From IMG/VR virus record IMGVR_UViG_3300043777_000338, positions 1-52,268 of that record: a stretch of 52,268 nt of DNA; one strand, written 5' to 3'. Position 1 is the stretch's first letter; the number at the start of each line of letters is the position of its first letter. A program made the position numbers and the translations under genes. Below the pieces are notes generated by a model, which saw only the letters and a program-made list of their open reading frames with translations, searched no databases and was not told the DNA's origin. This stretch comes from a virus (lineage: Duplodnaviria > Caudoviricetes). Shown in pieces: positions 385-17,768 of the stretch.

Positions 385-2524
385 ATACGATCTTTCAGAT
401 TTAGTTACGGCACCTTCTGGAAATGAAGCTCAGAATTATAATCTTGCAGATTTATCATCCCCGACTTCTCAAAAAGAAATGGGACTTCCTCAACAAGCGG
501 CGATTCTAGGAAAATCTGCAACTGCTGGTGCTCTTGGAGCTATTCCTGATATAGCTTCAATGATATACAACATTCCTGCAATGGTTTCTAATTATAAAAG
601 TAAACTTCTTCAACAAGCAGCAGAGCGTTATCCTGAATCATTAGAAATGATTAAAAAAGCTCATCCTGAGTTCGAGATTCCACATGCGCCGCTTATTCCT
701 TCTGCTACAGAAGCAATTGAACATGGAATTGATATCGGCACCGGTGGATATACAGAAACTCCTAAAGAGGGTGCATTAAAGCATATCGCTGAAGGTGCAA
801 AATTCGCTGGTTCTTTGGCAGGCCCTGGAGGGGTAGCGAAAGCAGCAGAGAAATTCGGAGCGCCACTCGCGGCAAAAGCTATAGGCGCAATTGGCGCTAC
901 AAAACCATCTGAATTGGTAGGAGCTGGGACTGCTGGAACTGGAATGAGTATGGCTCAAGAAGATTTGGGTCCATTAGGCGCATTAGGTGTGGGCTTGGTC
1001 TCAGGAGCCGGTGCGCAGAAGGCTGCATCTGGGTTGAGTAAAGTTGCAAAAGCTCCTGGCGAAGAAACCATTGGAAGAGTTCTATCTCTTCGTGCAAAAC
1101 CAAATGAAAATCTTATAAAAGAAGCTAAAGAAGCAGGCGTAGATCTTCCATTTAATGTAAAACTTGATAGTGATATAGCTCATTTAATGGCTAACTCAGC
1201 TCTTAAAGGAATAGCTACCAGCAAAAAATATAAAGATACAATTAAAAAAGCTGATCAAAGTATGATTAATGCAGTTGTTAAAAATATTGAATCTATTCAT
1301 CCAGAAAAATTAGGAAAAGAAGAAGCGTCTCAAGCTTATCGAGAACAAATGCATAAAACTATGGATGAAATTCAAAAAGAATCAAGTCAGTTATACGATA
1401 AGGCTAGAACTCATCTTCAACCTACAGATGTTGTGGCACCTAGTCACACTATTAATGCTATGAAAGATCTAAGATCTAAACTTTCTGCAGATGTTCCTTC
1501 GTCAGATATGAAATTTATGTTAAAGAAACTTTCTGATTTAGAAGATGCTTGGGGATTAAAAACTCCATCTCTTGAAAGATTTAATCTAGGAAAAGAACTA
1601 ACGCCACAGAAACAACAAATATTGGCAGCGCTGGGAAAATCATCATCAGTAGTTCCATTAGATAAGCTTGTTCAGCAACGCTCCGCATTCATGAGGGACA
1701 TCCAATATGGCGAAGAAGCTAAAGGTGCTAAAGGATTTATGAACTCATTAATTGGTGCTATCGATAAAGATATTGCTTCAACTTCAAATAAAGATTTCTT
1801 AAATAACTGGCGTGCTGCGAATCAATATTTTAAAGAAGAAGTTGCCGATAAAATTCGAACTGACTTTGCTGAATCCTTGAGCAAAAAAGAAATGCCCAAA
1901 TTAGCTTATTCATTCATGAATACGCCAGAAAGAATCAATGAATTGCACAAAATCATTGGCGACTCACCTGCTTCTAAGCAAGTTATGCAAGCATTAAAAA
2001 GATCTAAACTACAAGAAACAGTAATAGATCGAGTTATGAATTCTGATGGGACATTAAGTTATGCAAATTTAGCAAATTTATTTAATAAAAAAAGCCCTCA
2101 GCAAGGAATGTTAAAATCCTTATTAGGAAAAGAAGCATATGAAAATATGCAAAAGCTTGGAAATGTGGCGGCAGCACAAGTTAAAGCTGGAAAGACATTA
2201 GCCAATCCCAGCGGGACAGCTATTACTCAACAAGAATTTAAAAAAATTGGCGCTGCAATGGGAGCGCTTCTTGGTGCGGGTATTGGAACAGGGCATGCTT
2301 TAGCAAGTGTCGGTACTGCGGCTGGTTTAATAGGAACGCCATATGTTATATCGAGAATGCTTGCTAATCCTAAGTACGTAGATTCCGCTGTAAAATTCGC
2401 AACAGCGCGCCAACACAATAAGTTAAAAGATGCATCAAAATATCAAACATATATGCGTCAGATTTTCTTAAAGCAAATTGCACCACAATTAAGGGAAGTT
2501 GCAAAGCCAGAGAAAGAAGAGTAG
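374..2524 (+). CDS. Large Ala/Gly-rich helical protein, probable internal virion/DNA-ejection protein
   Basis: 716 aa, last gene of the structural operon, with Gly/Ala-rich hydrophobic segments typical of podovirus ejection proteins. TTG start after GGAG. Confidence 0.6.
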   Translation: MPNKYDLSDLVTAPSGNEAQNYNLADLSSPTSQKEMGLPQQAAILGKSATAGALGAIPDIASMIYNIPAMVSNYKSKLLQQAAERYPESLEMIKKAHPEFEIPHAPLIPSATEAIEHGIDIGTGGYTETPKEGALKHIAEGAKFAGSLAGPGGVAKAAEKFGAPLAAKAIGAIGATKPSELVGAGTAGTGMSMAQEDLGPLGALGVGLVSGAGAQKAASGLSKVAKAPGEETIGRVLSLRAKPNENLIKEAKEAGVDLPFNVKLDSDIAHLMANSALKGIATSKKYKDTIKKADQSMINAVVKNIESIHPEKLGKEEASQAYREQMHKTMDEIQKESSQLYDKARTHLQPTDVVAPSHTINAMKDLRSKLSADVPSSDMKFMLKKLSDLEDAWGLKTPSLERFNLGKELTPQKQQILAALGKSSSVVPLDKLVQQRSAFMRDIQYGEEAKGAKGFMNSLIGAIDKDIASTSNKDFLNNWRAANQYFKEEVADKIRTDFAESLSKKEMPKLAYSFMNTPERINELHKIIGDSPASKQVMQALKRSKLQETVIDRVMNSDGTLSYANLANLFNKKSPQQGMLKSLLGKEAYENMQKLGNVAAAQVKAGKTLANPSGTAITQQEFKKIGAAMGALLGAGIGTGHALASVGTAAGLIGTPYVISRMLANPKYVDSAVKFATARQHNKLKDASKYQTYMRQIFLKQIAPQLREVAKPEKEE

Positions 2525-2669
2525 AGTTGCATTTATGCAACAGCGTGGAAATATATCATCAATGACTTGCAAATCATGTTGATATATATTTATAACTAAT
2601 AGTATCCATCAACATCTCAAGAAAAGACGATGGTGGGTTATTTTTTTTAAAATATGAAAGGAACATAAT

Positions 2670-3344
2670 ATGAAAACATCTCTTTTATTAAGCGCGTCAG
2701 CTCTTATCGCGTCATGTGGAGTAGCCACCGCAGAAACAGCTACCAAAAATGCATCATCTACTGGAATTTATTTCGGACTGCATGGAGCGCTTGCACAAGG
2801 AAATAACAAGCATAAATCTCAGAATTTTGATAACAGCGTTGAACACAGAGGGCGTTCAGGAATGAAGGGTGGTCACGGTGGATTGCATCTTGGTTTCCAA
2901 AAAAGTTTTTCTAATAATTTAGTCTGCGGCATAGAAGGTGGCACGCATCTCGGAAGAACTAATGCTGGTAAGACTACTAATGTTTCTGGTGATTCTCATA
3001 AGACTTCTTTTACCAGGAAGCACGGAGTTCACATTTCTACAAAACTGGGATATGAACTTAATTCTTGGGTTCCTTATTTCCGCGTTGGTTATGATTCTTC
3101 TAAATTTACCAGCAAGACACAATTAAAAAGCAAGCCGCAAGCATCTAAGTCAAAAAGAATGGACGGATTAATGCTTGGTTTTGGTCTTGAGACGCAAATT
3201 AAGAGCATGATTGTTGGTGTTGAATGGGTTCACACGCTTTATGAAACTCAAAAATTCAACAAAAAGACAAACGCACACAGAATTAACGACAAAAATTCAG
3301 CAAAAATCGGAGACTTTAAAATCCGCTTAAGCTACAAAGTGTAA
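2670..3344 (+). CDS. Outer-membrane beta-barrel protein (OmpA-transmembrane/Omp25-like)
   Basis: Signal peptide, beta-strand motifs (GIYFGLHG, KLGYE, PYFRVGY, GFGLE, VGVEW) and a C-terminal beta-signal RLSYKV. Confidence 0.85.
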   Translation: MKTSLLLSASALIASCGVATAETATKNASSTGIYFGLHGALAQGNNKHKSQNFDNSVEHRGRSGMKGGHGGLHLGFQKSFSNNLVCGIEGGTHLGRTNAGKTTNVSGDSHKTSFTRKHGVHISTKLGYELNSWVPYFRVGYDSSKFTSKTQLKSKPQASKSKRMDGLMLGFGLETQIKSMIVGVEWVHTLYETQKFNKKTNAHRINDKNSAKIGDFKIRLSYKV

Positions 3345-3369
3345 CTTAAATATCACTAATCAAGAGAAT

Positions 3370-3400
3370 GGACTTAGAAAATTTCTAAGTCCTTTTTTTT
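3370..3400 (+). terminator. Rho-independent terminator of the OMP gene
   Basis: Inverted repeat ggacttagaaa-a-tttctaagtcc followed by T8. Confidence 0.85.
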
Positions 3401-3436
3401 GTTGTTGATTTTCATTAAAAGTTTTGTATTATGCAC

Positions 3437-3597
3437 GTGAAGGTATTCTCCTGTTAAGATTATATCTTCAATTGAAGGTGTCGTGTTTTTTTTGGTCACA
3501 AAGAATCGTTCGCACGACACCTTCTTTCCCTTCTAAAGAGATTCATTGAGAGAATATGTCATTGATTATGCGCATATTCTCTCATGATTTTTTTTAT
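3437..3597 (+). ncRNA. Candidate small RNA 1 (anti-Shine-Dalgarno loop)
   Basis: TTGATT-N16-TATTAT promoter (3405-3432); stem 3438-3446/3462-3470 whose loop shows UCUCCU; perfect 12-bp stem 3474-3485/3513-3524; 12-bp stem 3547-3558/3573-3584 followed by a T tract; no ORF. Confidence 0.55.
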
Positions 3598-3986
3598 TTT
3601 TTCTTAGAAGTATGAATAGCGACTTTTTGCGGTTGTAACTCTTTAGGAAGATTTCGCTCGATATTTATCTGCAAAAGGCCATCTTTTAAATAGGCATCCT
3701 TAACTTCCATATGATCTTTTAGATTTCTTTGCCAAATCGGATTGAAATCAAAAAATCTTTCATCGTCTTCTTCTTCGAGAATCATAACTGTTAAATTATT
3801 TTTATTTTTTGTAATTTCTAGATTCTTTTCTGAAATTCCTGGGACAGGTAGAATTATTCTATAATTATTATCATCGATCTTTTTTTCTATAGATGGAAAT
3901 TCAGCTCTGGCACCAAGAGAAGGGCGACAATCTGCGGGAGCTAAAAGCTGTGGTTTATTTAGATGTGGTTGTATATCAAGTCTCAT
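3594..3986 (-). CDS. Small heat-shock protein (Hsp20, IbpA-like)
   Basis: Alpha-crystallin motifs NYRIILPVPG, LEIT, AYLKDGLLQINIER and a C-terminal VAI motif; strong SD AGGAGG. Confidence 0.88.
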   Translation of the reverse strand: MRLDIQPHLNKPQLLAPADCRPSLGARAEFPSIEKKIDDNNYRIILPVPGISEKNLEITKNKNNLTVMILEEEDDERFFDFNPIWQRNLKDHMEVKDAYLKDGLLQINIERNLPKELQPQKVAIHTSKKK

Positions 3987-4044
3987 TTCTATCCTCCTAT
4001 GAGCAATAGTTTATATTATGAAAGCCTTATATAAGCACTTTCAT
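3987..4044 (-). promoter_or_regulatory. ROSE-like RNA thermometer in the sHSP 5' UTR
   Basis: Minus-strand RNA CUAUUGCUCAUAGGAGGAUAG (4009-3989): UUGCU pairs with the SD leaving a bulged G, which is the ROSE hallmark. A second hairpin lies upstream at 4044-4018. Confidence 0.75.
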
Positions 4045-4048
4045 CAAC

Positions 4049-4077
4049 ATTATAAATAAAGATTAAGAAATGATCAA
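4049..4077 (-). promoter_or_regulatory. Sigma70-type promoter of the sHSP gene
   Basis: Minus strand TTGATC-N17-TATAAT. Confidence 0.65.
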
Positions 4078-4099
4078 TTTGTTTTTATGCAATGACTTT

Positions 4100-4354
4100 T
4101 TAAAACTCTGGTTCTTCATCTAAATGAATAGGATTAAATGGCATAACCGTTGAAATAGCATGCTTATAAACTAACTGAGAATGTCCATCGCGCATTAAAA
4201 GAATCGAAAAATTATCGAACCATGTGATGATTCCTTGTAATTTAATGCCACTTATTAAAAAAAGTGTAATATGTTCTTTTTCTTTTCGAATTTTGTTAAG
4301 AAAAGTCTCTTGTAAATTTTGATTCTTTTCTATGATTATTTTCTCTTTTTTCAT
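4100..4354 (-). CDS. hfq: RNA chaperone Hfq (alphaproteobacterial type)
   Basis: QNLQETFLN..., [23 protein letters not shown]...[14 protein letters not shown] (Sm1 and Sm2 motifs), acidic tail, SD AGGAGA. Confidence 0.96.
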
Positions 4355-4375
4355 TATTGTTCTCCTAAAATAAAT

Positions 4376-4398
4376 GGAGAGGCATTAAATGCCTCTCC
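4376..4398. terminator. Hairpin between integrase and hfq (terminator or hfq leader structure)
   Basis: Perfect inverted repeat ggagaggcatt-a-aatgcctctcc, followed on the minus strand by ATTTATTTT and then the hfq SD. Confidence 0.55.
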
Positions 4399-4438
4399 TG
4401 TATTATAACTGTATTTTTCCTTTTAATAAAGTTAAGTA

Positions 4439-5623
4439 CTATGCAAATATTTCTGCTACTTTATTCGATTCTTTCTGTAAGAATTCATTCTCTAAATGCA
4501 CATATCGCATAGTTGTTTTAATATCTGCATGACCCAAAAGGCCAGCCACAGTGGTTATGCTAGCTCCCCCTTTTATTGCAAAGCTTGCAAATGAATGACG
4601 TATATCATGAATCCTAAAATTTTCAAGGCCAATCTCATTTTTTACACGTCGCCATAAATTATCAATATTTTTTAAATGTTGATTTTCTTTTTGTCCGCAA
4701 AAAACATAAGGATTGTTAAATTGTCGTTTAACTTTTTTCAGCGCTTCTAAAGCTCTTGCGTTAAGTGGGATAGTTCTTGCTCCACTCCTTTTCATTGTTT
4801 TATGTTCTTTGAGATAAATAAAATTATTTTCAAATTGAATATTTTCCCATTTAAGCTTGAGAATTTCATTTTTTCTAGCTCCTGTGTAAAGTAAGAGACG
4901 CAAAGCTAAAACGGTATAAGGATTTTTTTCTTCGCGCCGACTAAGCGCATCCTCCAATTTTCTTAATTCATGTTCACGAAGAAAATTTTGCATTTTGCGT
5001 AAGGGAATGAGTTTTACTCCTTTGCAAGGATTGATAGCATCTTGAGGAAGAAACTCCCATTCAATAGCTTTGTTAAATATTGCAGAAATCAATTTTATAC
5101 AAGTGCTTCTATTTTCTTTTCCTTCATTTGAGGAATTTAAAAAATCTCTTATGTTTTTACTTTGAATTTCTTTTAATTTCATTTTTCCAAAAAAAGGAAG
5201 TATATGAACTTTTATTCTAGATCGATTTGTATTTAAGGAGCCCACGGAATATTCTAATAACATATACTTTTCCTCAAAAATATTTAAAAACTCAGAAAAC
5301 AATAAATTTTCTATTGTTGGTTTTGACTCTGGTATTTTTTGTTTTAGCTCTTGTTTGTAGGATTTCGGATCGATTCCTTTCAAGATATCAGCACTCCAGA
5401 GTTTTGCGGTTTTTCGTGCTTCGTCTATAGAAATTTGTCCGTGCGATCCTATTTTTACCGCACAGGATTTTAAAGATCCTGGCAGCCGATAATGGAACAC
5501 ATATCCAATTTTTCCTTTAGGGCTAATTCGGCATCCAAATCCCTTGATTTCATCATCCCAAATGTGAAATTCTTTGTTTTGGGGTCTTATGTCCTTGATC
5601 CGTCCCGCTGTTAGCTTTGCCAT
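4439..5623 (-). CDS. int: Tyrosine integrase with N-terminal arm-binding domain
   Basis: Catalytic motifs YTGAR, HDIRH, LLGH and RY; N-terminal WDDEIKGFGCRI. Start moved from 5695 to ATG 5623 (MAKLT) behind AAAGGA. Confidence 0.95.
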   Translation of the reverse strand: MAKLTAGRIKDIRPQNKEFHIWDDEIKGFGCRISPKGKIGYVFHYRLPGSLKSCAVKIGSHGQISIDEARKTAKLWSADILKGIDPKSYKQELKQKIPESKPTIENLLFSEFLNIFEEKYMLLEYSVGSLNTNRSRIKVHILPFFGKMKLKEIQSKNIRDFLNSSNEGKENRSTCIKLISAIFNKAIEWEFLPQDAINPCKGVKLIPLRKMQNFLREHELRKLEDALSRREEKNPYTVLALRLLLYTGARKNEILKLKWENIQFENNFIYLKEHKTMKRSGARTIPLNARALEALKKVKRQFNNPYVFCGQKENQHLKNIDNLWRRVKNEIGLENFRIHDIRHSFASFAIKGGASITTVAGLLGHADIKTTMRYVHLENEFLQKESNKVAEIFA

Positions 5624-5648
5624 TTTATTTTCCTTTGTTGTTTTAAAA

Positions 5649-5903
5649 TTTGTTAGCAAACATTTGTTAACAAATAGCCGTGGATAGGTCAACAAAAATT
5701 TTTTTTAAAAAAAGAAAACAAGTTAAAACCATTGACAGAAAACAACTTTCAAAATGCTTTAAAAAGAATAAAAAACATAGGAAGTTGATTCATCGGATCA
5801 AAAACAATAACACCAAAAAATGATAGCTAATCGTTAATTTAAGCCATTTTCAAAAATCTAAAAAAACTCAAAATAAAATTTGTTACCACAATTTGTTAAC
5901 ATA
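5649..5903. other. Candidate attP
   Basis: Paired TTTGTTA(G/A/C)CA repeats at about 5649-5672 and 5879-5901 flank an inverted core TTGAT-N7-ATCAA at 5785-5801, directly upstream of the integrase. Confidence 0.5.
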
Positions 5904-5998
5904 CCCAAAAAAATCAAACAAAAAACACACCAATCAAATTCGCAAAAACTTTTGCAAAGCTTCAAAAAAGTGTAGAAAAATTTTTTTTATGCCCCATA

Positions 5999-6817
5999 AT
6001 GGCTGCAGTTAATTTTCACACAGGGAGAGCATTCGTGAAATTAAACTTGAACACAGGGTTTTTGCTATTCGCGAGGAAATTTACAAAAGAGGATTTAAAG
6101 GCGTCAGAAATTTTTAGTATCATTCATGAATATTTTTTTAATTACAAAGATATCACCCGAAAAGTTTATGAATCTAAGATTGCAGAGGGAATGGCTCTAG
6201 AGTTGCCTATCAATGACTCTGGAGACGGTATTTTTTATAATCTCAAAGAAAGACACGCTCTATTTCGAGGGCTTGTTTCAGAAGAAGACAAAAAATATAT
6301 GAAATTGGAATTGCTAAAAAAAGAAAAAATCATTAACTCTGTGCGCCTTTTTAAGCAAATGTTAATAGAACATGAAATAGAATTTCATTTAATAAATAGG
6401 AAAAATGACAAATTCAGCATAGTTTCTTCGTCTAATATTTTTTCAATCAAAGAAGATTTCACGGAAATTCTTTCAAATAATTTTGAATCTTATCAAGATT
6501 GCGACATCAAATATCATGAAGATACTTTAATCCAATCGATAGAAATATTTTTTGGAGATTTTAAAGGCCAAAATCCGAATTATAAAATTTATCGAGAAGA
6601 TGAATATGTTGATACAGTTATGAAGCTGTTCGCTGAAGATGATGTGCTTAAAATTTTAAAAGATTATCCTAATGATGAAGATTGGCAAGACCACACTGGT
6701 GATGGAAGTAAGGTGGCTATATGCGTTCATCGTCTTTATGGTTTAAAGCTTACTGTCGTAAAAAATTTTATAATGCCGATGATACGTTCTCAACGACGAA
6801 AATTTTCGGGAGAATAA
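5999..6817 (+). CDS. Hypothetical protein
   Basis: 272-aa ORF divergent from the integrase; no motif recognised. Confidence 0.7.
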   Translation: MAAVNFHTGRAFVKLNLNTGFLLFARKFTKEDLKASEIFSIIHEYFFNYKDITRKVYESKIAEGMALELPINDSGDGIFYNLKERHALFRGLVSEEDKKYMKLELLKKEKIINSVRLFKQMLIEHEIEFHLINRKNDKFSIVSSSNIFSIKEDFTEILSNNFESYQDCDIKYHEDTLIQSIEIFFGDFKGQNPNYKIYREDEYVDTVMKLFAEDDVLKILKDYPNDEDWQDHTGDGSKVAICVHRLYGLKLTVVKNFIMPMIRSQRRKFSGE

Positions 6818-6978
6818 TTTACAAATTTTGACTTCTTCGTCACAATTCTTCAAAAATATTTTCTCTGCAAACCCGCATTAACTCAAAAATCTTTTTCTTT
6901 TTCATTTTCATGAATTTCTAAATGTGATTTCCTCAAAAAACTAATAATGCGTTAGAAAATATTAAAAAGGAGAAACAG

Positions 6979-7230
6979 ATGGATAATAATCCTGATGACA
7001 AGAACAATGTAGAAGACATTCCTTCTATAAAGATTATTGAAAAAAGAGAACCAGTGTATCTGACAGCTCGAGAAGCTGCTGCGAAACTGAGATATTCTCT
7101 CGATACTCTTTATGGTTTGAAATACAGAAAAAAAGGCCCTCCTTTTCATAAAGCGGGAGGCAAGCTTTTATACGATCAAGACGAACTAATAGAATATATA
7201 AAAAGCCATAAAACAAGTTTTAGCAAATAA
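6979..7230 (+). CDS. Excisionase-like winged-helix (HTH_17/AlpA-type) protein
   Basis: YLTAREAAAKLRYSLDTLY...GPPFHKAGGKLLYDQDEL; strong SD AAGGAG. Confidence 0.8.
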   Translation: MDNNPDDKNNVEDIPSIKIIEKREPVYLTAREAAAKLRYSLDTLYGLKYRKKGPPFHKAGGKLLYDQDELIEYIKSHKTSFSK

Positions 7231-7246
7231 AGAAAGGATAAAACAA

Positions 7247-7648
7247 ATGGAAATTCATTTAAATGATAATATAACAAAAGAAGATAATTTTCTAAAAGCG
7301 ATTGAAATAAGCTATATTAATTTAGAAAGACAAATAAGAATAAAAAGAGCAGCTGCCTATATGATTCTCGCCTGGAAAACGAATTGTGAAGAATATCTTG
7401 ATGGAATTGAAGATATTAATAATGAGTATCTTTTTACTGAAGCGGAATTAAGAAGAATTTTTAATGTAGTTCCTCAAAGAGAAGATTTATTTAAATCAAT
7501 TCTTGATAAATATGCTGGAAATTGCATTTATCCAATTAATCATACTCATTATTTTTCTTTGCCTAAAATAATTGAAAGCTACTGGGTTTTAGAAAGAATC
7601 GTTCCATTAACATTCTTTTGGGAAAAGGGGGAATTTTGCTATGAATAA
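7247..7648 (+). CDS. Hypothetical protein
   Basis: 133-aa ORF with SD in the early operon. Confidence 0.7.
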   Translation: MEIHLNDNITKEDNFLKAIEISYINLERQIRIKRAAAYMILAWKTNCEEYLDGIEDINNEYLFTEAELRRIFNVVPQREDLFKSILDKYAGNCIYPINHTHYFSLPKIIESYWVLERIVPLTFFWEKGEFCYE

Positions 7649-7979
7649 ACCAGAGGAAGAATCATCTGCATTAAAAAGAACAAGATTTTATATAAAGCAT
7701 GGAAGACAAATGCTCTTATATTTAAGTGAATTTTATAAATCTTTGGATGAAATGTTGGCAGGAATTGAAAAATTAGACAAATCCTCCGGTAAGATAATGA
7801 TCTTTTTTACAACTAAGGAATTAGCCGACGCTTTGCATAGTAATAATCCAGAAGATTTAGAAACTATGTTGTTAAAATATGGAGCAAAAAAAATACATAA
7901 CAATGGAACTGCAAGATACGAATTATTAGATATATTAATTTGTCTTAATAATATTTTTCAAAATATATTAAAAATCTGA
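7641..7979 (+). CDS. Hypothetical protein (possible degenerate winged helix)
   Basis: 112 aa, overlaps the previous gene; FTTKELADAL segment. Confidence 0.65.
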   Translation: MNKPEEESSALKRTRFYIKHGRQMLLYLSEFYKSLDEMLAGIEKLDKSSGKIMIFFTTKELADALHSNNPEDLETMLLKYGAKKIHNNGTARYELLDILICLNNIFQNILKI

Positions 7980-8002
7980 ATTTTTATTAAAAAGGTATAA
8001 AA

Positions 8003-10294
8003 ATGAGAATAATCCAATTTGATAAATTTGAAAGCGTTCAGCATGTAACTCCTATTCCTGTGCGATTTACTTACGATCAAATGTTAAATTGGATTTTTTA
8101 TTTTAAAGATATTGATAAAAAAGAAGATCGCAAAGCTTGCTTTTCTTTTACAAAATATAAAGAAGGACGCACCAGGGGGAAAGAAAATATAGAATTTATG
8201 ACGGGAATTGTATTTGATTTTGATAACAAACATAAACCTATCAAACCAATGGAAGAAATCGTTTCAGTGCTAGAAAAGAATCGTATCATGCATTTTTGGT
8301 ACGATACTTTTCAAAGCACTATCGATTCTCCTCGTTGGCGACTTATTATACCTTTTTCAGAGCCTCTCCCTATAGAAAAATGGGAAGCTGTTTATGAGAA
8401 AGTTTTTCATTATATTGGCTCTCCTCTTGGCGTAGATCCAGTTTCTAAAAAATCTGCTCAATTATATTTTGATCCTTATGCGCCGAAGAGTGGCGCAAGT
8501 TTATTTCAATCGCATGCATTCAATGGAAATATTTTAAATGTAATTGATATACCAGATATACCTATTCCGAATGAAACAAAAGAAACTCAAAGCAATGCGA
8601 TAGATTTAAAAAAAAAATTCTCAAGAAATAACAATACTGACAAAATAACATCTGCTTTGTCTTTTATTTCTCCCGATGTTGACTATGATTGCTGGATCAG
8701 AATAGGTATGGCACTCAAAAGTGAACTGGGCCAATCTGGATACGATATATGGAATCAATGGTCTGGCCAAGGTATAAAATATAAAAATGAAAAAGATCTT
8801 TCACAACATTGGAAATCATTCAAGAAATCTGGGGTCAGCATTGGAACTCTTTATGGGATGGCTCAAGAACGTGGATTTGTAATGCCCTTTGATGATGTTC
8901 ATGATGTGAGCATCTATCCGGTATCGCCTCAGAAAATGCCTAGTAATTTTATTCAACATACTGAACAAAATCATGACCCTATTATTGACATAGCTGAAGA
9001 AACCCTTGAAGAGATTATAAATGTTTGTATTGAAAAATTAGATTATTACGCAAATATAGACATCTTTGATATTCCATCGCCTCTTTTAAAAAAGCTTTTT
9101 GAATGGCTTGAGAGTTCATCAAAAATATTTCAACCAATTTATTCTTTGGCTACAGCTCTTTCTATTATGGCTTTTTTAAAACGCAATACAATTATCAGCC
9201 CCACGAAATTGCGTACAAATTTATATATTTTATCTATTGGCCCTAGTCGCTCAGGGAAGAATAACGGTCTTGAGCGTATATTCCAAGTGATGTCAGAAGT
9301 GGGGCTTGAAAATTATTTGACTTCTGGCGTTGGATCTCATCAAGGCTTACTGAAGCAATTAAAAGAAAATAATGGATGCGTATTTTGGAAACAAGATGAA
9401 TTATCTTACATGCTTAAAGGATTTAATAACAAAAACGCAAGTACCCACGAACAAAACATCGAACAAAAATTATTAACACTTTACAATTGTAAATATCAAA
9501 CGACAGACGCAACGAAAGGGGATAAGCTAGAGCGAATTAAAGATCCGTATTTAAATATCTATTCCACGGCCACAGAACAGATCGTAGAGATCTTAAAACC
9601 GCAGTCGGCTATCTCTGGGTTACTTGCGCGCTTTTTGATATTCTGGGTGCATCCTGGCGAGCCATATAAAGATAACTTTCATCCATATGAAGAAATTCCG
9701 CCTGATTTGTTAGAGCAACTAAAAACTTTTGAAGCTCAAAGAGCTATTAAACAGGCGATTTTCACCCCTGAAGCTAAGGAATGGTATGGAAAATTTTTAA
9801 AAGAAGTGCGAGCCTCTCAACGAATTTTAAGCGAAAATGGCACAAAAGTGGATTCGCTTGTAGGCAATCTTCCGGAACAAGCGACAAAATTGGCTTTATT
9901 AACAGCAGTTTTTGATGTGCTTCCTGCTGGAGATAAAAACAATCAAATCAAATATGAAAATTGGCCTCACATTCGTCTTGAAGATATTCAATGGGGCGTC
10001 AGCATCGCCATGCATTGCTTAAAGAACAACATCGCCATAGCAAATACATTTTCTGATAATCATAACGAAAAAATAGTAAATAAAATTAGGGATAAGATAA
10101 AAAACAAAACCAAAGATGGAAGGTGGATTACTAAATCTTCTCTTTGGAGAGCTGTTCGTTATATCGCGAACTCTAGACAATTAGATGAGATTTTAAGTTT
10201 GCTTTCTGAAGCTGGAGATATTGAAAAAAATCATAACAATTCTTCGCGCGGATATAAAGTTCGTTGGAATAACAAACAAAAAACAGAAAAATAA
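8003..10294 (+). CDS. Primase-helicase (AEP-like primase + PriCT-2 + DUF3987-like P-loop domain)
   Basis: DFD motif and PRWRLIIPF; DYDCWIRIGMALK...W..WS..G.KY (PriCT-2); Walker A GPSRSGKN; GLLARFL. Confidence 0.85.
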   Translation: MRIIQFDKFESVQHVTPIPVRFTYDQMLNWIFYFKDIDKKEDRKACFSFTKYKEGRTRGKENIEFMTGIVFDFDNKHKPIKPMEEIVSVLEKNRIMHFWYDTFQSTIDSPRWRLIIPFSEPLPIEKWEAVYEKVFHYIGSPLGVDPVSKKSAQLYFDPYAPKSGASLFQSHAFNGNILNVIDIPDIPIPNETKETQSNAIDLKKKFSRNNNTDKITSALSFISPDVDYDCWIRIGMALKSELGQSGYDIWNQWSGQGIKYKNEKDLSQHWKSFKKSGVSIGTLYGMAQERGFVMPFDDVHDVSIYPVSPQKMPSNFIQHTEQNHDPIIDIAEETLEEIINVCIEKLDYYANIDIFDIPSPLLKKLFEWLESSSKIFQPIYSLATALSIMAFLKRNTIISPTKLRTNLYILSIGPSRSGKNNGLERIFQVMSEVGLENYLTSGVGSHQGLLKQLKENNGCVFWKQDELSYMLKGFNNKNASTHEQNIEQKLLTLYNCKYQTTDATKGDKLERIKDPYLNIYSTATEQIVEILKPQSAISGLLARFLIFWVHPGEPYKDNFHPYEEIPPDLLEQLKTFEAQRAIKQAIFTPEAKEWYGKFLKEVRASQRILSENGTKVDSLVGNLPEQATKLALLTAVFDVLPAGDKNNQIKYENWPHIRLEDIQWGVSIAMHCLKNNIAIANTFSDNHNEKIVNKIRDKIKNKTKDGRWITKSSLWRAVRYIANSRQLDEILSLLSEAGDIEKNHNNSSRGYKVRWNNKQKTEK

Positions 10295-10394
10295 AACAAA
10301 AACAAGTCGATGATAAGAAAATATTTTATTTTTATTATGTTTATTTTTCTCATGGGGATTGCTATATTCAATTTTATATTAAAGAGAGAGATAA

Positions 10395-11228
10395 ATGAGC
10401 AATTTTAACTTAAAAAATGCAAAACCCACAATTATTCCAGTTCCACCGAAAGTGATTATCTATGGAAGAAATGGAATTGGAAAATCTCGATTTGCGGCAG
10501 CAGCTCCAAATCCTATATTTTTAGATCTAGATAAAAATATTAATGAAATTTCTTGTGTTTCAAATACAAAAGGAATTGAGAAGGAATTTCCGCTAAATAC
10601 ATTTCAAAATGTAGTAGATTTTTTAAATATTCTGATAAATGAAGAGCATAATTTCAAAACAGTTGTTATAGATTCTATAAGTCCACTTAATATCTTAATA
10701 GAAAATCAAATAAAAAAAGAAAGAAATATCGAATCAATCGCTGATTTGAAATTTGGACTAGGTTATAGCTTAGTATATGGACTGTGGGATCAATTCTTAA
10801 CTCTTTTAAATCAATTATGGGAAAAAAGAAAAGTAATAATAATTTTGATCGGACATGATAAAATCAGAGAATCAAAAGAATTAATATCTGAACCATTTGA
10901 TCAATATCAATTAAATGTTCCTGAAAAGATTATGCTTTCTTTAACTGGATGGTGTAGCGCAATTCTTTATGCAAAAGATAGAGCATCCTTTTTAGAAAAG
11001 AAGGGTGATTTCGGCGCAATAAACAAAGTTTTTAAATCGTCTGATCGAGTGCTTTACACTGACGGTGGTACTATTTTCTTAGCCAAGGCAACATATAATC
11101 TTCCAAAGACAATACCATTTAATCAAGGAGACGCTGCCAAAGCCTGGAATATGTTTTATACCCATGTACAAGAATATTATAAGAATCCGAATCAAGAACC
11201 TGACGAAAATAAAGGAGAAAAACAATGA
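10395..11228 (+). CDS. Sak4-like AAA ATPase (ssDNA-annealing recombinase)
   Basis: IYGRNGIGKS (Walker A), TVVIDS (Walker B), IILIGH, FLAK. Confidence 0.8.
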   Translation: MSNFNLKNAKPTIIPVPPKVIIYGRNGIGKSRFAAAAPNPIFLDLDKNINEISCVSNTKGIEKEFPLNTFQNVVDFLNILINEEHNFKTVVIDSISPLNILIENQIKKERNIESIADLKFGLGYSLVYGLWDQFLTLLNQLWEKRKVIIILIGHDKIRESKELISEPFDQYQLNVPEKIMLSLTGWCSAILYAKDRASFLEKKGDFGAINKVFKSSDRVLYTDGGTIFLAKATYNLPKTIPFNQGDAAKAWNMFYTHVQEYYKNPNQEPDENKGEKQ

Positions 11229-11416
11229 ATAATATAGAAATAGACGAAAAATTAGAAGAAATTGTAACAAAACTTAAAATCATTAATAGTATGTCATCAA
11301 ATATTTCTCAAAGAGTTAATGAGCTTACAAGAGAAGTTAAGTCAGATATTAAAAAGTTAATTATAAATTTAGCAACAGAAGGGCAAGCCAATGACAGCGA
11401 TCTCATTCAAGTTTGA
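11225..11416 (+). CDS. Hypothetical protein
   Basis: 63 aa, ATGA overlap with the upstream gene, SD AGGAG. Confidence 0.65.
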   Translation: MNNIEIDEKLEEIVTKLKIINSMSSNISQRVNELTREVKSDIKKLIINLATEGQANDSDLIQV

Positions 11417-11822
11417 TGATGATAATAAGTTTCCTGAAAAAAGCCTTTTGCCAGAGGGGCCTTATTTAGGACAAATAATTGAAGTGAAGCAAATGGAAAA
11501 TGCTTTTGACGGTGAATTTACTGCGATTATATGGGAATTAGAAGATCTGTCTATAAAACGAGATAAGCTTCGACTATGGCATATTGAAGACAACAAAAGA
11601 AAAGCAGCGCAAATCAAAACAAAAAAATTATGTAATGCACTCAATATAAAGCTGAAAATGGAATCAGATGGCACAGCTTCTTTTGATCCGAGTGAATGGA
11701 AAGGTAAGAGAGCTTATTTAATCATAAAGCACATACGAACAAAAGATGGAAAGATCATTGAAGCAATTGATGATTATAAACCTTATAATGAAAAGGAAAA
11801 ACTTTCTGCTTTTCCTTTTTAG
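11391..11822 (+). CDS. Single-stranded DNA-binding protein (DUF669-like)
   Basis: LLPEGPYLGQIIEV N-terminal motif, C-terminal PF, and position after the Sak4-like gene. Confidence 0.6.
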   Translation: MTAISFKFDDDNKFPEKSLLPEGPYLGQIIEVKQMENAFDGEFTAIIWELEDLSIKRDKLRLWHIEDNKRKAAQIKTKKLCNALNIKLKMESDGTASFDPSEWKGKRAYLIIKHIRTKDGKIIEAIDDYKPYNEKEKLSAFPF

Positions 11823-11825
11823 TCG

Positions 11826-11990
11826 ATGAAAATGATTAAAAACAAAATAGAGAACAACCCTCTAAGCATACTTACAAAAAGAATGATTTTATTAGCAGAA
11901 GATTTAGTCCAACTAGCAGAAGAATTGCTTCTAATGGAAAAAATTGAAGATGTAAATTTTGCAAAGAAAAAGAAAAACTTAATAAACTAG
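11826..11990 (+). CDS. Small hypothetical protein (54 aa, not in ORF track)
   Basis: MKMIKNKIENNPLSILTKRMILLAEDLVQLAEELLL... fills the gap between the SSB-like and exonuclease genes. Confidence 0.5.
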   Translation: MKMIKNKIENNPLSILTKRMILLAEDLVQLAEELLLMEKIEDVNFAKKKKNLIN

Positions 11991-11991
11991 A

Positions 11992-12750
11992 ATGACTGAA
12001 TCATATATTCCTTTTCATGATTTTCGCAAACGAATTTTGGAAACATATCTTCAAGAAAAAAAAGAGCCACGATATTACATTGGAGCTTCAAGTATCGGTC
12101 ATGCATGTGATCGAAAGATTTGGCTCCAGTGGCGCGGAGATATTCAGCCAAAAGATTATATGGAATCAGAAAAATGGCTTAAACAACAACGAGCATTTGA
12201 GCGTGGAATAGAAGAAGAAGAGAGACATATTTTACGCCTTGAAAAAGCTGGATATATTATATCTGATAGACAAAAACAATTTTTAGCGGCCGCACCTATT
12301 ATTTCTTCCAACTCATTTGCGACATCTTCATATCCATATTTTTTTGGATTAAAAGGACATATTGATGGGATTATAATCGATTCACAAGATCCGAAAAAAA
12401 CTAAATATATTTTAGAGATTAAATCTGCAAAAGAAAATTATTTCAAAGGTGTAATAAATCCTGAAAAGGGTCTTGAAGAAATTTATCCTCAATATATAAA
12501 GCAAGTACAGCTTTATATGCATTTTGCAGAAATTCATCAAACATTCGTACTTTTGATAAATAAAAATGACGATGAATTGCACCATATTATATTAAAATAT
12601 AATCCAGCAGAAGCAGAAGGAATGATTGAAAAATCAAATAGAATTGCATCAATAGAATCATTACCTATTGGCATAAAAAACGAAATAAAGCCGCCATATC
12701 AATGTAAAATGTGTGAATTTAAAGGATATTGTTATGAAAAAGAAACCTAA
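11992..12750 (+). CDS. Cas4-like/PD-(D/E)XK exonuclease with four-cysteine cluster
   Basis: GASSIGHACDR, GHIDG, LEIKS, QVQLYM and CKMCEFKGYC. Confidence 0.85.
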   Translation: MTESYIPFHDFRKRILETYLQEKKEPRYYIGASSIGHACDRKIWLQWRGDIQPKDYMESEKWLKQQRAFERGIEEEERHILRLEKAGYIISDRQKQFLAAAPIISSNSFATSSYPYFFGLKGHIDGIIIDSQDPKKTKYILEIKSAKENYFKGVINPEKGLEEIYPQYIKQVQLYMHFAEIHQTFVLLINKNDDELHHIILKYNPAEAEGMIEKSNRIASIESLPIGIKNEIKPPYQCKMCEFKGYCYEKET

Positions 12751-13132
12751 TACTAATGCAGGAATTAAAAAAGACAATTTAACTGAAGTTGAAATTGAAC
12801 ATTCCGTCAAAAATTGCGTTGAATATTTTCAGAATATTATAACTTTATCAAATTATATTATTAATAATGAAAATACTTTTGAAGGAAAAACCGAGAAATT
12901 TAGAGAAGCCGAGACTTTTTTTAAAGTTAATATGGAATTAATAATATTTATTTTAACAACTATATATGATGCTCCAATGCATTATGCAATTGAAGGAAAT
13001 TCAGAATTAAAACCTATTACAGTCGGAACATCATTAGAAATGTTAAATGAGAATTTAAAAGACTTAAATGCAATCTTAAAAATGCAGACAAAAGAATTTC
13101 CACGATTCTTGAAAGAAAAATCCATACATTAA
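12734..13132 (+). CDS. Hypothetical protein
   Basis: ATG 12734 behind AAGGA is preferred over GTG 12713. Confidence 0.65.
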   Translation: MKKKPNTNAGIKKDNLTEVEIEHSVKNCVEYFQNIITLSNYIINNENTFEGKTEKFREAETFFKVNMELIIFILTTIYDAPMHYAIEGNSELKPITVGTSLEMLNENLKDLNAILKMQTKEFPRFLKEKSIH

Positions 13133-13186
13133 CTTAATGTTTACTGATTATATACATTTATGATATTATCTATCAGGTATGTAAAT

Positions 13187-13300
13187 ATGAAATATCATCG
13201 GAAATTCTTATTATTATTGGCATTACTCATCACTTTAGGGGGATGTGTCGTTGCTACATTAAACGTAGATTTCCATGCACCTAGATTAAATCGTTATTAA
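13187..13300 (+). CDS. Small lipoprotein (37 aa, not in ORF track)
   Basis: MKYHRKFLLLLALLITLGGC-VVATLNVDFHAPRLNRY: basic n-region, hydrophobic h-region and lipobox LGGC. Confidence 0.65.
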   Translation: MKYHRKFLLLLALLITLGGCVVATLNVDFHAPRLNRY

Positions 13301-13335
13301 TTGAAAACCAATATTGCTAAAGAAAGAATAAAAAA

Positions 13336-13779
13336 ATGCGCACAGTTGATGTTATGGAATCTCTTCCATTTATTCTTATCCCAAGGAGTCAATGGATTGA
13401 ATCTGATAAAATTAAGCTTAAAGAAGAAGATGCGACTGCATTTGAGTTTGTAGCATTTCTGCGTGAAGAATCATTAAAAGATAATCTTCCATTTGTTTGG
13501 TTTTATGTCCCCAATGAAGTAAGCGATTATAGCAGGCCTATATTCCAAAGAAAGCAGAGCTGGAAAGGAAGAATTCCTGGAGTTCCAGATTATTGCTTTG
13601 TCGGGAAGCATAGCTTTTTCATAGAATTTAAGGCAGAAAAAAACAGGAAGCGTCCAATCGGTGGGAATCAAGCCATCTTCCATAAGTGGGCCGAAAGAAA
13701 TGGAATTCCAACATTTGTTTGTTTTAATGCGGAAGAAGCTATTGAAAAAGTGGCTGAAATGCGGTTAAAGAATTTGTAA
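13336..13779 (+). CDS. VRR-NUC family nuclease (putative resolvase)
   Basis: YVPNE, PGVPD, FIEFK and a Q..F..W motif. Confidence 0.8.
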   Translation: MRTVDVMESLPFILIPRSQWIESDKIKLKEEDATAFEFVAFLREESLKDNLPFVWFYVPNEVSDYSRPIFQRKQSWKGRIPGVPDYCFVGKHSFFIEFKAEKNRKRPIGGNQAIFHKWAERNGIPTFVCFNAEEAIEKVAEMRLKNL

Positions 13780-13876
13780 AATTAAAATACATTGTTAATC
13801 AAAAATTAGATAAAGCAAAATAACTATTAGAAGACTAAACATTAAAGACGACCAAAACATATATCACTTCTTTTAT

Positions 13877-14185
13877 TTATTTCTTATTTCCCTTCATATA
13901 TATATTGCGATATAGCTCAGCATCTGAAAATAAGATATTTTCCATTTCTGGCGTAATTAATCGCGCCAACATTAATAGCCAAGGAAGATCTTTTTCTTCT
14001 AGAATTTCGCAAATCCTTTTTACTTCTTCAATTGTTGGAGGTAACTTTTGATAAATCAAACGATTATATCTATGATGTTTAAGCTTTAAGAGCTCTACAA
14101 ACTCAGTTATTGTAAGTCTTAATTCATATTGCTTAAATTCTAAATATTCACTAAAAGTTTTGATCTCGGATAACTGATGTTGCAT
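13877..14185 (-). CDS. XRE-type HTH transcriptional regulator
   Basis: TFSEYL...LTITEFVELLKL...PPTIEEVKRICEIL; no peptidase domain. Confidence 0.65.
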   Translation of the reverse strand: MQHQLSEIKTFSEYLEFKQYELRLTITEFVELLKLKHHRYNRLIYQKLPPTIEEVKRICEILEEKDLPWLLMLARLITPEMENILFSDAELYRNIYMKGNKK

Positions 14186-14783
14186 GTTCTTTGTGTAAAT
14201 TGTTGTGATGTTTTAACAAATCTAAAAATGGTTGTAAAGTTTTTAGTGAGTCCCGCTCTTCACACTGGAACTTTATATAGGGAATGAGAAAAGCAGTATG
14301 TTGCGCTATAAAAAGAATGCATTCATCGGAAGTCATTTGAGACATTTCAGATCTAAGTTCACAATATTTTTTATAACTTTCTATTATGAAATCATGATCA
14401 TCATCTTCCATAAATGGCATATTTAAATCAAGCAAGCGCATCCACGTTAGATTTTTCTTAAATGGAATTAATGCTTGAGGCATTTCTAAATAAGTAAAAT
14501 TTGCAACCGTTCCAGTATTATAATCCACATATCTTTGTGCTACTGATTTGCGCGCGCCTAATGTTATACAAGTATAGACAATCTCCCAAAAGAAATACGT
14601 TCCAATTCTTATGATTTGCTCGCTGTCTTTTATATTGATAGAATCTTGCTTTATTTGGAGTATTGAAGGAATTATGCTAAGGCGTATCATTTGCGCTGTC
14701 CTATTTGGACACCTACGCTCCGGAAGGGAAAGAATCTCTACGTAAAGATCTTTTATAGAAGAGAGAAATATGTTAATAATCAT
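14151..14783 (-). CDS. Hypothetical protein
   Basis: 210-aa ORF in a tightly coupled leftward operon. Confidence 0.7.
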   Translation of the reverse strand: MIINIFLSSIKDLYVEILSLPERRCPNRTAQMIRLSIIPSILQIKQDSINIKDSEQIIRIGTYFFWEIVYTCITLGARKSVAQRYVDYNTGTVANFTYLEMPQALIPFKKNLTWMRLLDLNMPFMEDDDHDFIIESYKKYCELRSEMSQMTSDECILFIAQHTAFLIPYIKFQCEERDSLKTLQPFLDLLKHHNNLHKEHATSVIRDQNF

Positions 14784-14992
14784 ATTTTTTCTTGCTCTTT
14801 TTTCATTTCTTCTATTAAATGTTCATACAAGATTATATCTTTCAATGTTAATTTCGACATTGGAATAGAACGAAGTTTATCCATTAGATCTTGATTATTT
14901 GGATATAATATTTTCTTTTTCATCGCCAATTTCGTATCAGCTGCTGTCCAATTATCTTCACATTCATAAACAGTATATTTGTTTTTGATCAA
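14780..14992 (-). CDS. Hypothetical protein
   Basis: 70 aa with 4-bp overlaps at both ends. Confidence 0.6.
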   Translation of the reverse strand: MIKNKYTVYECEDNWTAADTKLAMKKKILYPNNQDLMDKLRSIPMSKLTLKDIILYEHLIEEMKKEQEKI

Positions 14993-15300
14993 GGTATATT
15001 TCCTTTGTTATCAACCAATATTCCAGTAGATATTTTATTCAATTCTTCAATTTTATTTCTCAATTCATCTTCTAATAAAACTTCTTCAAAACAGCTGTTC
15101 AATTTTTTAAAATCATTTCTGTAAGCAGGATTAATCTGAAATATAAGCTGAGAGGCTAAAAAATTAACCATAGAAATTAAATGATCTGTTATTCCTTGAT
15201 TTTTATTAAGTGAAGGACATTGCAGAAAGTAAGTTAATGAATTAAAAAATTCGAGCAAAAGAGTTCGATCTTTCTGGAATTGTCCTTTTAATTCACTCAT
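14989..15300 (-). CDS. Hypothetical protein
   Basis: 103 aa with 4-bp overlaps. Confidence 0.65.
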   Translation of the reverse strand: MSELKGQFQKDRTLLLEFFNSLTYFLQCPSLNKNQGITDHLISMVNFLASQLIFQINPAYRNDFKKLNSCFEEVLLEDELRNKIEELNKISTGILVDNKGNIP

Positions 15301-15659
15301 AACTTAATCATGTTATATAATCTTTTAATCCACCGACAAAATCGAAACCATAAAGAAGGCAGAATGAGACGATATGTACCATTTGCGTGATAACTTATTA
15401 TTGCATCCGGATCCCTATTATCTTTTAAAAGATCATAAAAACTAGAATGTTTTTTGGAAACTTTATTTGTCAAATGATCTAACGTTTCACCCATTGTTTT
15501 AAATGATTCATGAATCGATGGCAATTCCTTAGAAAGCGGTGGCAATTTTGTTGACTTATTCTTCTTCAATTGTGTTTTAGAAAGTCCGAGTGCAACAAGC
15601 TTCTCACGAGCTTTTTCAGGGGATTTACGGCGACGTTTTATGGTAATTGCATTGGTCAC
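15297..15659 (-). CDS. Hypothetical basic protein
   Basis: GTG start with SD AAGGAG; 120 aa. Confidence 0.65.
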   Translation of the reverse strand: MTNAITIKRRRKSPEKAREKLVALGLSKTQLKKNKSTKLPPLSKELPSIHESFKTMGETLDHLTNKVSKKHSSFYDLLKDNRDPDAIISYHANGTYRLILPSLWFRFCRWIKRLYNMIKL

Positions 15660-15670
15660 GTTGGTTCTCC

Positions 15671-16826: not shown

Positions 16827-16866
16827 TCTTACTATATATACTAAATATGAAAGTTTCGTTAAAAAG

Positions 16867-17022: not shown

Positions 17023-17201
17023 CTTGTTTTTCCTTTGTTGTTTGTTGTTTTCATCAGGCCAAATCTGATTAGCTGATAAAATATTTTTAACATGCGTAAT
17101 TTTCTTTTTCAAGAAGAATTTTTTCTTTTTTTAAAAAAAATATTAAGTTGTTAAAATGTAGGCATGTAAAGAGCAGTGGCAAGAGGAGCGCCAGTTAGAA
17201 A

Positions 17202-17736: not shown

Positions 17737-17768
17737 GCCCATTGTAATTTTTGAGGTATATTGTGACT

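Follow-up and report, generated by a model that had tools for sequence, protein, structure and literature searches.

The genome of a soil phage, IMG/VR record IMGVR_UViG_3300043777_000338 (52,268 nt, analysed here in full and referred to as the window), carries an intact gene for the RNA chaperone Hfq 84 nt downstream of its integrase gene. We regard it as probable that the phage captured this Hfq and keeps it, still functional though fast-evolving, as cargo on the lysogeny side that would modify the host Hfq pool, and that three RNA units with strong terminators in the same genome (units 1, 2 and 3) are terminator or leader elements that perhaps bind Hfq incidentally. A first-pass annotation of the window had joined hfq and the three units into a self-contained riboregulatory system. 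Its claim of an intact hfq beside an integrase was borne out: the product matches the Pfam family PF17209 with 98 bits, the neighbour is an integrase of family PF00589, and both lie inside a complete genome with direct terminal repeats (DTR). The system itself found no support, as the units stay below the Rfam thresholds, show no excess of phage targets over shuffles and admit plainer readings, and as units 2 and 3 are poorly conserved.

The window phage encodes a canonical Hfq

The hfq gene (4100-4354, minus strand) encodes 84 aa without internal stops and is preceded by an AGGAG ribosome-binding site about 8 nt before its ATG. Its product exceeds the PF17209 cut-off of 27 bits by far (E 2.4e-28), with residues 14-76 covering profile positions 1-63 of 64, and its best solved relative is the Hfq of Caulobacter crescentus (PDB 6gwk, E 4.8e-31). 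Alignments to 6gwk, 3ahu and a 1hk9 chain show intact YKHAIST (Sm2-type), GIKLQG and FDNF motifs. In an alignment of 13 sequences, comprising the phage protein and its 12 nearest homologues (65-71% identical to it), 40 columns are invariant, and the phage Hfq keeps 40 of 40. Judged by profile and alignment, the hfq product is a bona fide canonical Hfq with its conserved residues intact. The gene is also compositionally at home in the phage genome, which has 37% GC: hfq has 27.5% GC and 22% GC at third codon positions (GC3), and the other ten phage genes measured have a GC3 of 21-36%.

The window is the whole of its IMG/VR record, which is classed as DTR and has a CheckV completeness of 100; its first 127 nt (1-127) recur with 100% identity at 52142-52268. 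The window thus represents a phage genome of about 52.1 kb that closes into a circle.

Origin of the phage Hfq

In a collection of 5.8 billion proteins, the phage Hfq forms a singleton cluster. The other matches listed are at most about 77% identical to it, the lone exception being one 80% match over only 55% of the phage protein, and the named matches come from metagenome-assembled genomes (MAGs) of a Caedimonadaceae bacterium, an Alphaproteobacteria bacterium and a Pseudomonadota bacterium. Among species-representative genomes, 569 of 600 candidate stretches are Hfq relatives; the best 80 of these 569 all belong to Alphaproteobacteria taxa or carry broader labels (Pseudomonadota, Proteobacteria, proteobacterium), at 60-73% identity.

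A FastTree phylogeny was built from 115 Hfq sequences (the phage protein, 17 hand-chosen proteins, genome loci and IMG/VR loci), the short alignment limiting its resolution. It places the phage Hfq in a 12-leaf clade (support 0.90) that also contains locus L065 and, from a Caedimonadaceae MAG, protein P0082. The terminal branch of the phage Hfq is 0.50 substitutions per site long, whereas those of genome Hfqs do not exceed 0.33 and have a median of 0.05; these branch lengths indicate that the phage protein evolves about ten times faster than chromosomal Hfqs. In this comparison with host Hfqs, one of the checks put forward with the first-pass annotation, the nearest kin of the phage Hfq are alphaproteobacterial Hfqs of the Caedimonadaceae-like kind, and its own branch is some ten-fold longer than the median. 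Taken together, homologue survey, tree and GC/GC3 values indicate that the gene was captured long ago from an alphaproteobacterial lineage of low GC and has since evolved fast while its constraint was retained.

The host is most likely a low-GC alphaproteobacterium near Caedimonadaceae. When five alphaproteobacterial genomes were searched for prophage relatives with the large terminase (TerL; 26314-27978, phrog_38, E 1e-69), two of the five gave matches, all of them weak. As a separate observation, many of the top-scoring Hfq matches are proteins of 120-145 aa, and four that were aligned (P0002, P0007, P0015 and P0033) have a second full or partial Hfq (Sm) domain; these four resemble a tandem-duplicated form of Hfq from metagenomes.

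Phage-encoded Hfq is rare but recurrent

A search of PHROGs with the phage Hfq returned no matching family (0 hits at E 0.001). Among GenBank phages, 7 of 50,697 records match, none of them covering 80% of the query; the seven include two Salmonella whole-genome shotgun contigs (each about 500 kb) and two records of Acinetobacter phages (about 48.7 kb) in which hfq is annotated. The one match taken as a plausible case of a phage hfq is an unannotated 63-kb record ("Bacteriophage sp.").

The 2.9 million contigs of IMG/VR contain 18 loci that match a back-translated QxxYKHAIST pattern; 16 of these encode Hfq according to a hidden Markov model, and an alphaproteobacterial pattern added one further Hfq locus. 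The resulting total of 17 is tied to the motifs used and is thus a lower bound; for several of the loci, a position at the contig edge makes host flanks likely. This survey, which had been suggested together with the first-pass annotation, did yield two genomes, G001 and G003, in which hfq is clearly a phage gene. G001 (locus L138; 37.4 kb, DTR, 100% complete), a phage unrelated to the window, encodes a 76-aa Hfq whose gene (6580-6810) lies between a replication module of the AAA_24/ERCC4/DnaB type and an integrase gene (9084-10283) about 2.3 kb away. In G003 (a provirus, 94% complete), the gene for a 70-aa Hfq directly precedes that of a VapE-type primase, and the terminase is 7 kb away. A further genome, G005 (42.7 kb, 100% complete), also encodes Hfq.

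The Hfqs of the other IMG/VR phages are only 31-53% identical to that of the window and therefore represent separate acquisitions. None of five IMG/VR relatives of the window TerL (TerL identity 55, 47, 51, 29 and 29%; three are at least 90% complete) has Hfq, and queries with Hfq, the integrase or a 1291-aa protein of the window found no close IMG/VR relatives. Accordingly, hfq is optional cargo and not a lineage trait. Phage hfq is rare but recurrent, occurring in at least three unrelated phage backbones, two of which have it within about 2.5 kb of an integrase. On plasmids, Hfq homologues are comparatively common, occurring in 521 of 72,556 records, 440 of them from Bacillus. No description of a phage-encoded canonical Hfq was found in the open-access PMC and bioRxiv literature, and within that literature the earlier statement that no characterised phage equivalent is known holds.

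hfq lies in a cargo cluster beside the integrase

The hfq gene is part of a cargo cluster between the integrase and the last gene of the tail region, which ends at 2524. The order is outer-membrane beta-barrel protein (OMP), unit 1, Hsp20, hfq, a hairpin and the integrase. The OMP gene (2670-3344, plus strand; PF13505, E 3.7e-9) has its own terminator at 3370-3400. The gene for the small heat-shock protein Hsp20 (3594-3986, minus strand; PF00011, E 4.6e-8; phrog_432), which the first reading had overlooked, is placed between unit 1 and hfq and has its own promoter-like site (TTGATC-17-TATAAT at 4077-4049, a 10/12 match). In the gap between integrase gene and hfq lies a 10-bp hairpin (4376-4398, minus strand) with a perfect TATAAT just upstream, which may be a weak terminator of the integrase gene, part of the hfq 5' leader or both.

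The integrase is of the P4-type tyrosine family (4439-5623, minus strand; PF00589, E 1.4e-31; PF13356; PF14659). Its start, read from the translation, is likely the ATG at 5623, the open reading frame (ORF) list extending it to a TTG at 5695. Upstream of it, a non-coding gap of 375 nt (5624-5998) contains four TTTGTTAnCA repeats in two pairs, putative arm-type sites, and we infer that this gap is a candidate attP. An Rfam search of the unit 1 region and of 5600-6050 for a tRNA-like fragment found none. Unit 1 was also considered as attP, which is less likely given the better candidate upstream of the integrase. If the gap is attP, the integrase gene, hfq and hsp20 would come to lie at one end of the prophage, the classic place for lysogenic-conversion genes. 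Several traits of moron or lysogenic-conversion cargo are present, since hfq lies beside the integrase gene and is missing from all five TerL relatives, and OMP and hsp20 have promoter-like or terminator sites of their own.

Host DNA misassembled into a phage contig, or a very recent pick-up that plays no role, would be another way to account for an Hfq gene in a viral record. The record does stem from a metagenome assembly, several further Hfq loci of IMG/VR are found at the edges of contigs and have likely host flanks, and the lone run containing the whole 2600-6000 stretch may be the source of the record itself. The window hfq, however, has tail genes on one side and the integrase on the other, all within a genome closed to a circle, and its GC3 matches that of the phage. 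With at most about 77% identity to any Hfq in the 5.8-billion-protein collection, the short 80% match apart, it is no fresh copy of a host gene. Moreover, a second soil run (X2, from an identical strain) has identical fragments on both sides of the cluster. We therefore hold an artefact or inert passenger to be very improbable. In all, three runs from three studies, with soil as the metagenome source, carry the window DNA or that of a close strain. In the soil runs it is present as short contig pieces, in X2 from the identical strain and X3 from a strain of 95-99% identity; one joint among them (3913 to 19052), with a side of 21 letters, is probably spurious.

Outside the cluster, Pfam and PHROG matches identify a portal protein (28727-31150), a major head protein (36617-37519) and a primase (PriCT-2/DUF3987, 8003-10294), and adaptor and tail-fibre proteins as well as a tail-fibre chaperone domain are also encoded. 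The head module contains a GroES-like co-chaperonin (Cpn10, phrog_3188; 32533-32982, plus strand). Together with Hsp20 and Hfq, this makes three such genes and hence chaperone-type cargo a theme of the phage. Between the portal and GroES-like genes, an ORF for 331 aa (31218-32213) includes two tandem repeats of 86-87 nt at 31691-31863 that are 84% identical to each other. Their runs of CAT/CAC codons, read from the DNA, predict a histidine-rich segment that is possibly metal-binding.

Three RNA units with the strongest intergenic terminators

Each of the three units closes with a GC-rich hairpin and a run of seven to eight T (U8, U7 and U7 in the RNAs), and all fold far more stably than 200 shuffled sequences: unit 1 (3450-3597, plus strand) with -52.1 kcal/mol and z -8.2, unit 2 (19372-19489, plus strand) with -47.5 kcal/mol and z -7.2, and unit 3 (28125-28059, minus strand) with -30.0 kcal/mol and z -7.0. 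Both strands of the whole genome were scanned for terminators, defined as a hairpin abutting a run of at least five T. At the threshold of -9 kcal/mol or better, 23 sites were found, eight of them intergenic. The terminator hairpins of units 1, 2 and 3 reach -19.9, -18.9 and -19.7 kcal/mol, the other five intergenic sites -9.1 to -11.7 kcal/mol, so the three units are the strongest intergenic terminator-like elements of the genome. Units 1 and 2 also have U- or CU-rich single-stranded linkers before the U-tailed terminator, as Hfq-dependent trans-acting small RNAs (sRNAs) do, although such features are generic to terminators.

The first-pass annotation had described the units as ORF-free combinations of promoter, hairpin and poly-U. 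Hairpins and U runs stood up (z -7.0 to -8.2), and the promoters did not. Sigma-70-like sites show no excess in 2400-6100 (10 against 15.2+/-4.8 in shuffles), and three further counts likewise lay near those of shuffles (107 against 87.6+/-9.1, 63 against 63.2+/-7.8 and 22 against 30.8+/-5.0). Promoter-like sites being as frequent in shuffles, the promoters of the units carry no statistical weight. As to the absence of ORFs, the ORF list puts an ORF at 19135-19380 and a TTG-extended start at 19469 over unit 2, the real start of the big ORF concerned probably being the ATG at 19664.

Unit 1 (3437-3597, plus strand) consists of a hairpin of 12-13 bp (3474-3524), a CU-rich linker and a second hairpin (3543-3587) with U8. 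It is convergent with hsp20, whose stop codon the U8 run overlaps. On the minus strand the hairpin has no U run, and unit 1 is therefore oriented for plus-strand transcripts. The DNA at 3345-3600 has no match in GenBank phages, and a permissive Rfam search of the unit 1 region gave noise only. Unit 1 is the best candidate of the three for a stand-alone sRNA. As an orphan promoter-like site plus terminator between convergent cargo genes, it could be a genuine sRNA, or it may act as an additional, insulating terminator. Two small ORFs over the unit, of 41 aa (starting with TTG) and 48 aa (starting with GTG), were taken as chance; the 41-aa start has no AGGAG-like site upstream.

Unit 2 and the rightward operon

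Unit 2 (19372-19489, plus strand) comprises three hairpins, a U-rich linker and a terminator at 19448-19482 with U7 and the loop GCCUCCCC. It matches the sX13 model (RF02232) end to end, if weakly (22.8 bits against a threshold of 50, E 0.18). Just upstream lies unit 2a (19195-19335, plus strand; z -6.1), with two hairpins and a CU-rich tail and without a U run. About 175 nt downstream of unit 2 begins the ORF of the 1291-aa protein (19664-23539, plus strand; probable ATG at 19664), which has no Pfam or PHROG match and no close IMG/VR relative and is followed by small genes and then the terminase. Directly after the unit 2 terminator, five tandem 12-nt CTTTTTTTATAT repeats span 19482-19577, where the strain of run X3 has indels; the CTTTTTTTATAT repeats could be iterons, a U-rich leader or a slippage-prone tract. 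Downstream of the 1291-aa ORF, a DUF7710 gene (E 5.5e-39) and a YxiG-like gene stand side by side (23838-24454, plus strand).

For a comparison of the units between phages we used L033, the closest relative retrieved, whose TerL is 88% identical to that of the window. Upstream of units 2 and 2a, a non-coding element of 89 nt (19088-19175, plus strand) is 87.6% identical in L033, against about 76% for coding DNA, and is probably a promoter or operator heading the rightward operon. In L033, an ORF starts within about 60 nt of this element and no terminator is found there, which speaks against conservation of unit 2. The interval that holds unit 2 and the 1291-aa ORF measures 6.8 kb in the window and 2.8 kb in L033. 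Unit 2 is therefore part of a window-specific insertion. The DNA at 17100-19660 has no match in GenBank phages. Just upstream of the 89-nt element, a 130-aa protein (17921-18313, plus strand) with CxC...CxxC cysteine pairs has 67% nucleotide identity in L033; it has no family match and is possibly a late-gene activator or antiterminator.

In lambda, 6S RNA is the late-operon leader, a short transcript that runs from PR' to its terminator tR'. The layout of conserved 89-nt element, unit 2, big ORF and TerL resembles such a lambdoid PR'-6S-tR' late leader, but L033 lacks a terminator at this place, and no Q-like protein was identified among the window proteins with Pfam and PHROG. The position of unit 2 fits equally well with the end of the upstream operon, with a leader that terminates short of the 1291-aa ORF and the packaging genes, and with an independent sRNA.

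Unit 3 and its tRNA

Unit 3 (28059-28125, minus strand), a hairpin followed by a GC hairpin with U7, lies between an ORF at 28157-28606 (minus strand), whose stop codon it follows after 32 nt, and a gene for tRNA-Asn (GTT; 27981-28056, minus strand; Rfam 73.8 bits, also found by ARAGORN). The tRNA, which had escaped the first reading, starts 3 nt after the U run. L033 and a second relative, L035, which is identical to L033 in this region, share the layout: a homologous ORF is followed by a hairpin, by a GC hairpin of 13 bp with U8 and at once by a tRNA, with a sequence unrelated to that of unit 3. The tRNA in the slot is tRNA-Tyr in L033 (10138-10221) and L035 (1210-1293) and tRNA-Asn in the window. 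A -35/-10-like pair over the ORF stop can be aligned between window and L033 (TTGACA-17-TAAGTT and TTGATT-17-TATATA).

Of the units in these relatives, then, unit 2 is absent from L033, and for unit 3 the slot is kept with an unrelated RNA sequence. The latter fits a terminator of the ORF, a leader of the tRNA transcript or both. We infer that an RNase P cut would release a hairpin-U-tail RNA from a joint transcript of unit 3 and tRNA. Independently of this, the slot between the terminase gene and a divergent ORF of 149 aa resembles a swappable leader-tRNA cassette, with an unrelated strong hairpin and U run in each phage.

The three units and the phage Hfq

A hairpin followed by at least seven U is a generic 3' handle for Hfq. 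Any of the three units could therefore bind Hfq, and no dedicated partnership follows from this. A covariance search against Rfam, one of the checks suggested initially, put none of the three units at its gathering threshold, and a permissive search over 3300-4500, 5600-6050 and 16800-19700 returned only sub-threshold matches at chance level (tpke11, RAGATH-8, sX13, bantam and SNORA27). Targets were sought by duplexing nine unpaired segments of the units with positions -40 to +20 of 62 phage ORFs and with 40 mononucleotide shuffles, a weak test restricted to phage targets. No duplex went beyond chance, the best energies being equalled or beaten in 5-97.5% of the shuffles. Partner RNAs beside the hfq of three other Hfq phages were looked for with a crude terminator scan, too coarse to exclude them, which revealed no strong unit and a single weak site (-12.0 kcal/mol), in G001, where it lies some 150 nt from hfq.

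These data bear on the self-contained module proposed initially, in which the phage Hfq would be dedicated to phage sRNAs (units 1, 2 and 3, perhaps also 2a) that control phage or host mRNAs. All three units do combine a stable hairpin with seven to eight U, units 1 and 2 with U- or CU-rich linkers, and they are the most stable such sites of the genome. Unit 2 matches sX13 over its full length, the -35/-10-like pair before unit 3 is conserved in position in L033, and phage sRNAs that use Hfq are established with VpdS and PreS (PMC12197685, PMC13603594). Against the module stand Rfam scores below gathering in 3/3 units, promoter-like sites at chance density, the absence of unit 2 from the nearest relative, the unconserved sequence of unit 3, the lack of duplexes beyond the 40 shuffles (fraction 0.05-0.975) and the single weak site near hfq in the other three phages. 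In addition, hfq3 of plasmid pXO1 and its co-resident sRNAs are independent of each other as far as stability is concerned (PMC7843513). On balance, a dedicated module appears unlikely.

A model for the phage Hfq

In the reading that we prefer, a temperate soil phage would have captured a host hfq and retained it as cargo in the variable cluster beside the integrase, alongside the other chaperone-type cargo, Hsp20 and the GroES-like protein. The phage Hfq would form the usual hexameric ring, with U-rich 3' ends and A-rich tracts as its ligands. In lysogens or infected cells it may add to the host Hfq pool or compete with it, shifting sRNA-dependent regulation in favour of the phage. Unit 2 would serve as a terminated leader, or as the terminator of the upstream operon, ahead of the 1291-aa ORF and the packaging genes, and unit 3 as terminator of the ORF 28157-28606, as 5' leader of the tRNA-Asn transcript or as both.

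Several observations count against this account. Among the sequencing runs with window DNA, 0 are RNA runs, the host Hfq pool is a presumed one, and the homo-hexameric, RNA-binding ring is predicted by homology. The phage Hfq deviates at four (I29, S35, I37 and M54) of the eight columns that are at least 90% conserved in its 12 nearest homologues; with four near-invariant columns changed and a long branch, an altered or relaxed function is therefore possible. As to the units, unit 1 follows an OMP gene that already has a terminator of its own. It is also unusual that the three units are the three strongest terminators of the genome, which plain gene termination does not explain.

The divergence would also suit a phage Hfq turned against the host, namely a competitor or poison subunit that titrates host sRNAs or forms mixed rings and so disables host riboregulation, possibly of an anti-phage kind. 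The branch exceeds the chromosomal median ten-fold and half of the eight near-invariant columns are changed, with the subunit-interface motif YKHAIST kept; over-produced plasmid Hfq3 is toxic via its distal face (PMC5348863), and host sRNAs can antagonise phage replication (PMC12197685, PMC13603594). The 40 of 40 invariant columns that are kept nevertheless argue for ordinary function, and we give such a counter-host role a low probability. A more elaborate scenario strikes us as quite improbable: the temperate phage of an endosymbiont-like alphaproteobacterium would have domesticated Hfq for a post-transcriptional circuit of its own and would load it preferentially with the three strong-terminator RNAs (among them a leader linked to the tRNA and freed by RNase P, and a late leader of the 6S kind), thereby timing the lysogeny-lysis switch or late expression, or reprogramming envelope or stress genes of the host.

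A phage with an hfq of its own would be evidence that not just the RNA clients of bacterial riboregulation but also its hub protein can travel with viruses, and it would offer a natural experiment in which a duplicated, fast-evolving Hfq meets the resident one and may supplement it, compete with it or form mixed rings. Were the three-RNA circuit true, it would be the first virus-encoded Hfq-sRNA regulon. Through its recurrence, phage Hfq is a tractable, undescribed class of cargo gene.

Comparison with known systems

Alphaproteobacterial chromosomal Hfq, as represented by the Caulobacter protein (6gwk), is of the same family and length class as the phage Hfq and has the same motifs and a short acidic C-terminal tip. 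In contrast to it, the window Hfq is phage-encoded, sits on a ten-fold longer branch and has four substitutions at near-invariant columns. For the RNA units, the layout of unit 2 resembles that of lambda 6S as a terminated late-operon leader. The tRNA cluster of phage T4 contains stable small RNAs co-transcribed with the tRNAs, so that structured RNA lies directly beside a phage tRNA gene, as does unit 3.

Phage-encoded proteins with an LSm-like fold are known from T4, where GoF and MotB.1 share the Sm/LSm fold with the window protein but have no sequence similarity to Hfq according to the cited text (PMC12152347). The phage sRNAs VpdS (of VP882), PreS, LPR2, lambda 6S, DicF and IsrK use the host Hfq (PMC12197685, PMC13603594, 10.1101/2020.03.17.996009) and are short phage transcripts with intrinsic terminators, a form that the window units may share. 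Whereas the phages of VpdS, PreS, 6S and the like depend on the Hfq of the host, and none is reported in these texts to encode one (PMC12197685, PMC13603594), the window phage encodes its own.

Chaperones of the FinO/ProQ family, such as FinO with FinP and FopA, occur on plasmids and phages (PMC9977716). They combine an element-encoded RNA chaperone with element-encoded RNAs, which is the mechanism originally proposed for the window, but their fold is unrelated to that of Hfq and the partnership has been demonstrated experimentally (PMC9977716). Plasmid pXO1, finally, encodes hfq3 together with the sRNAs XrrA and XrrB, whose half-lives are unchanged in hfq mutants (PMC7843513; PMC5348863). It differs from the window in being a Firmicute plasmid, not a phage, and in the Hfq-independent stability of its sRNAs (PMC7843513). 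With an extra Hfq on a mobile replicon that also encodes terminator-bearing sRNAs, pXO1 is nonetheless the closest precedent for what is found in the window phage.

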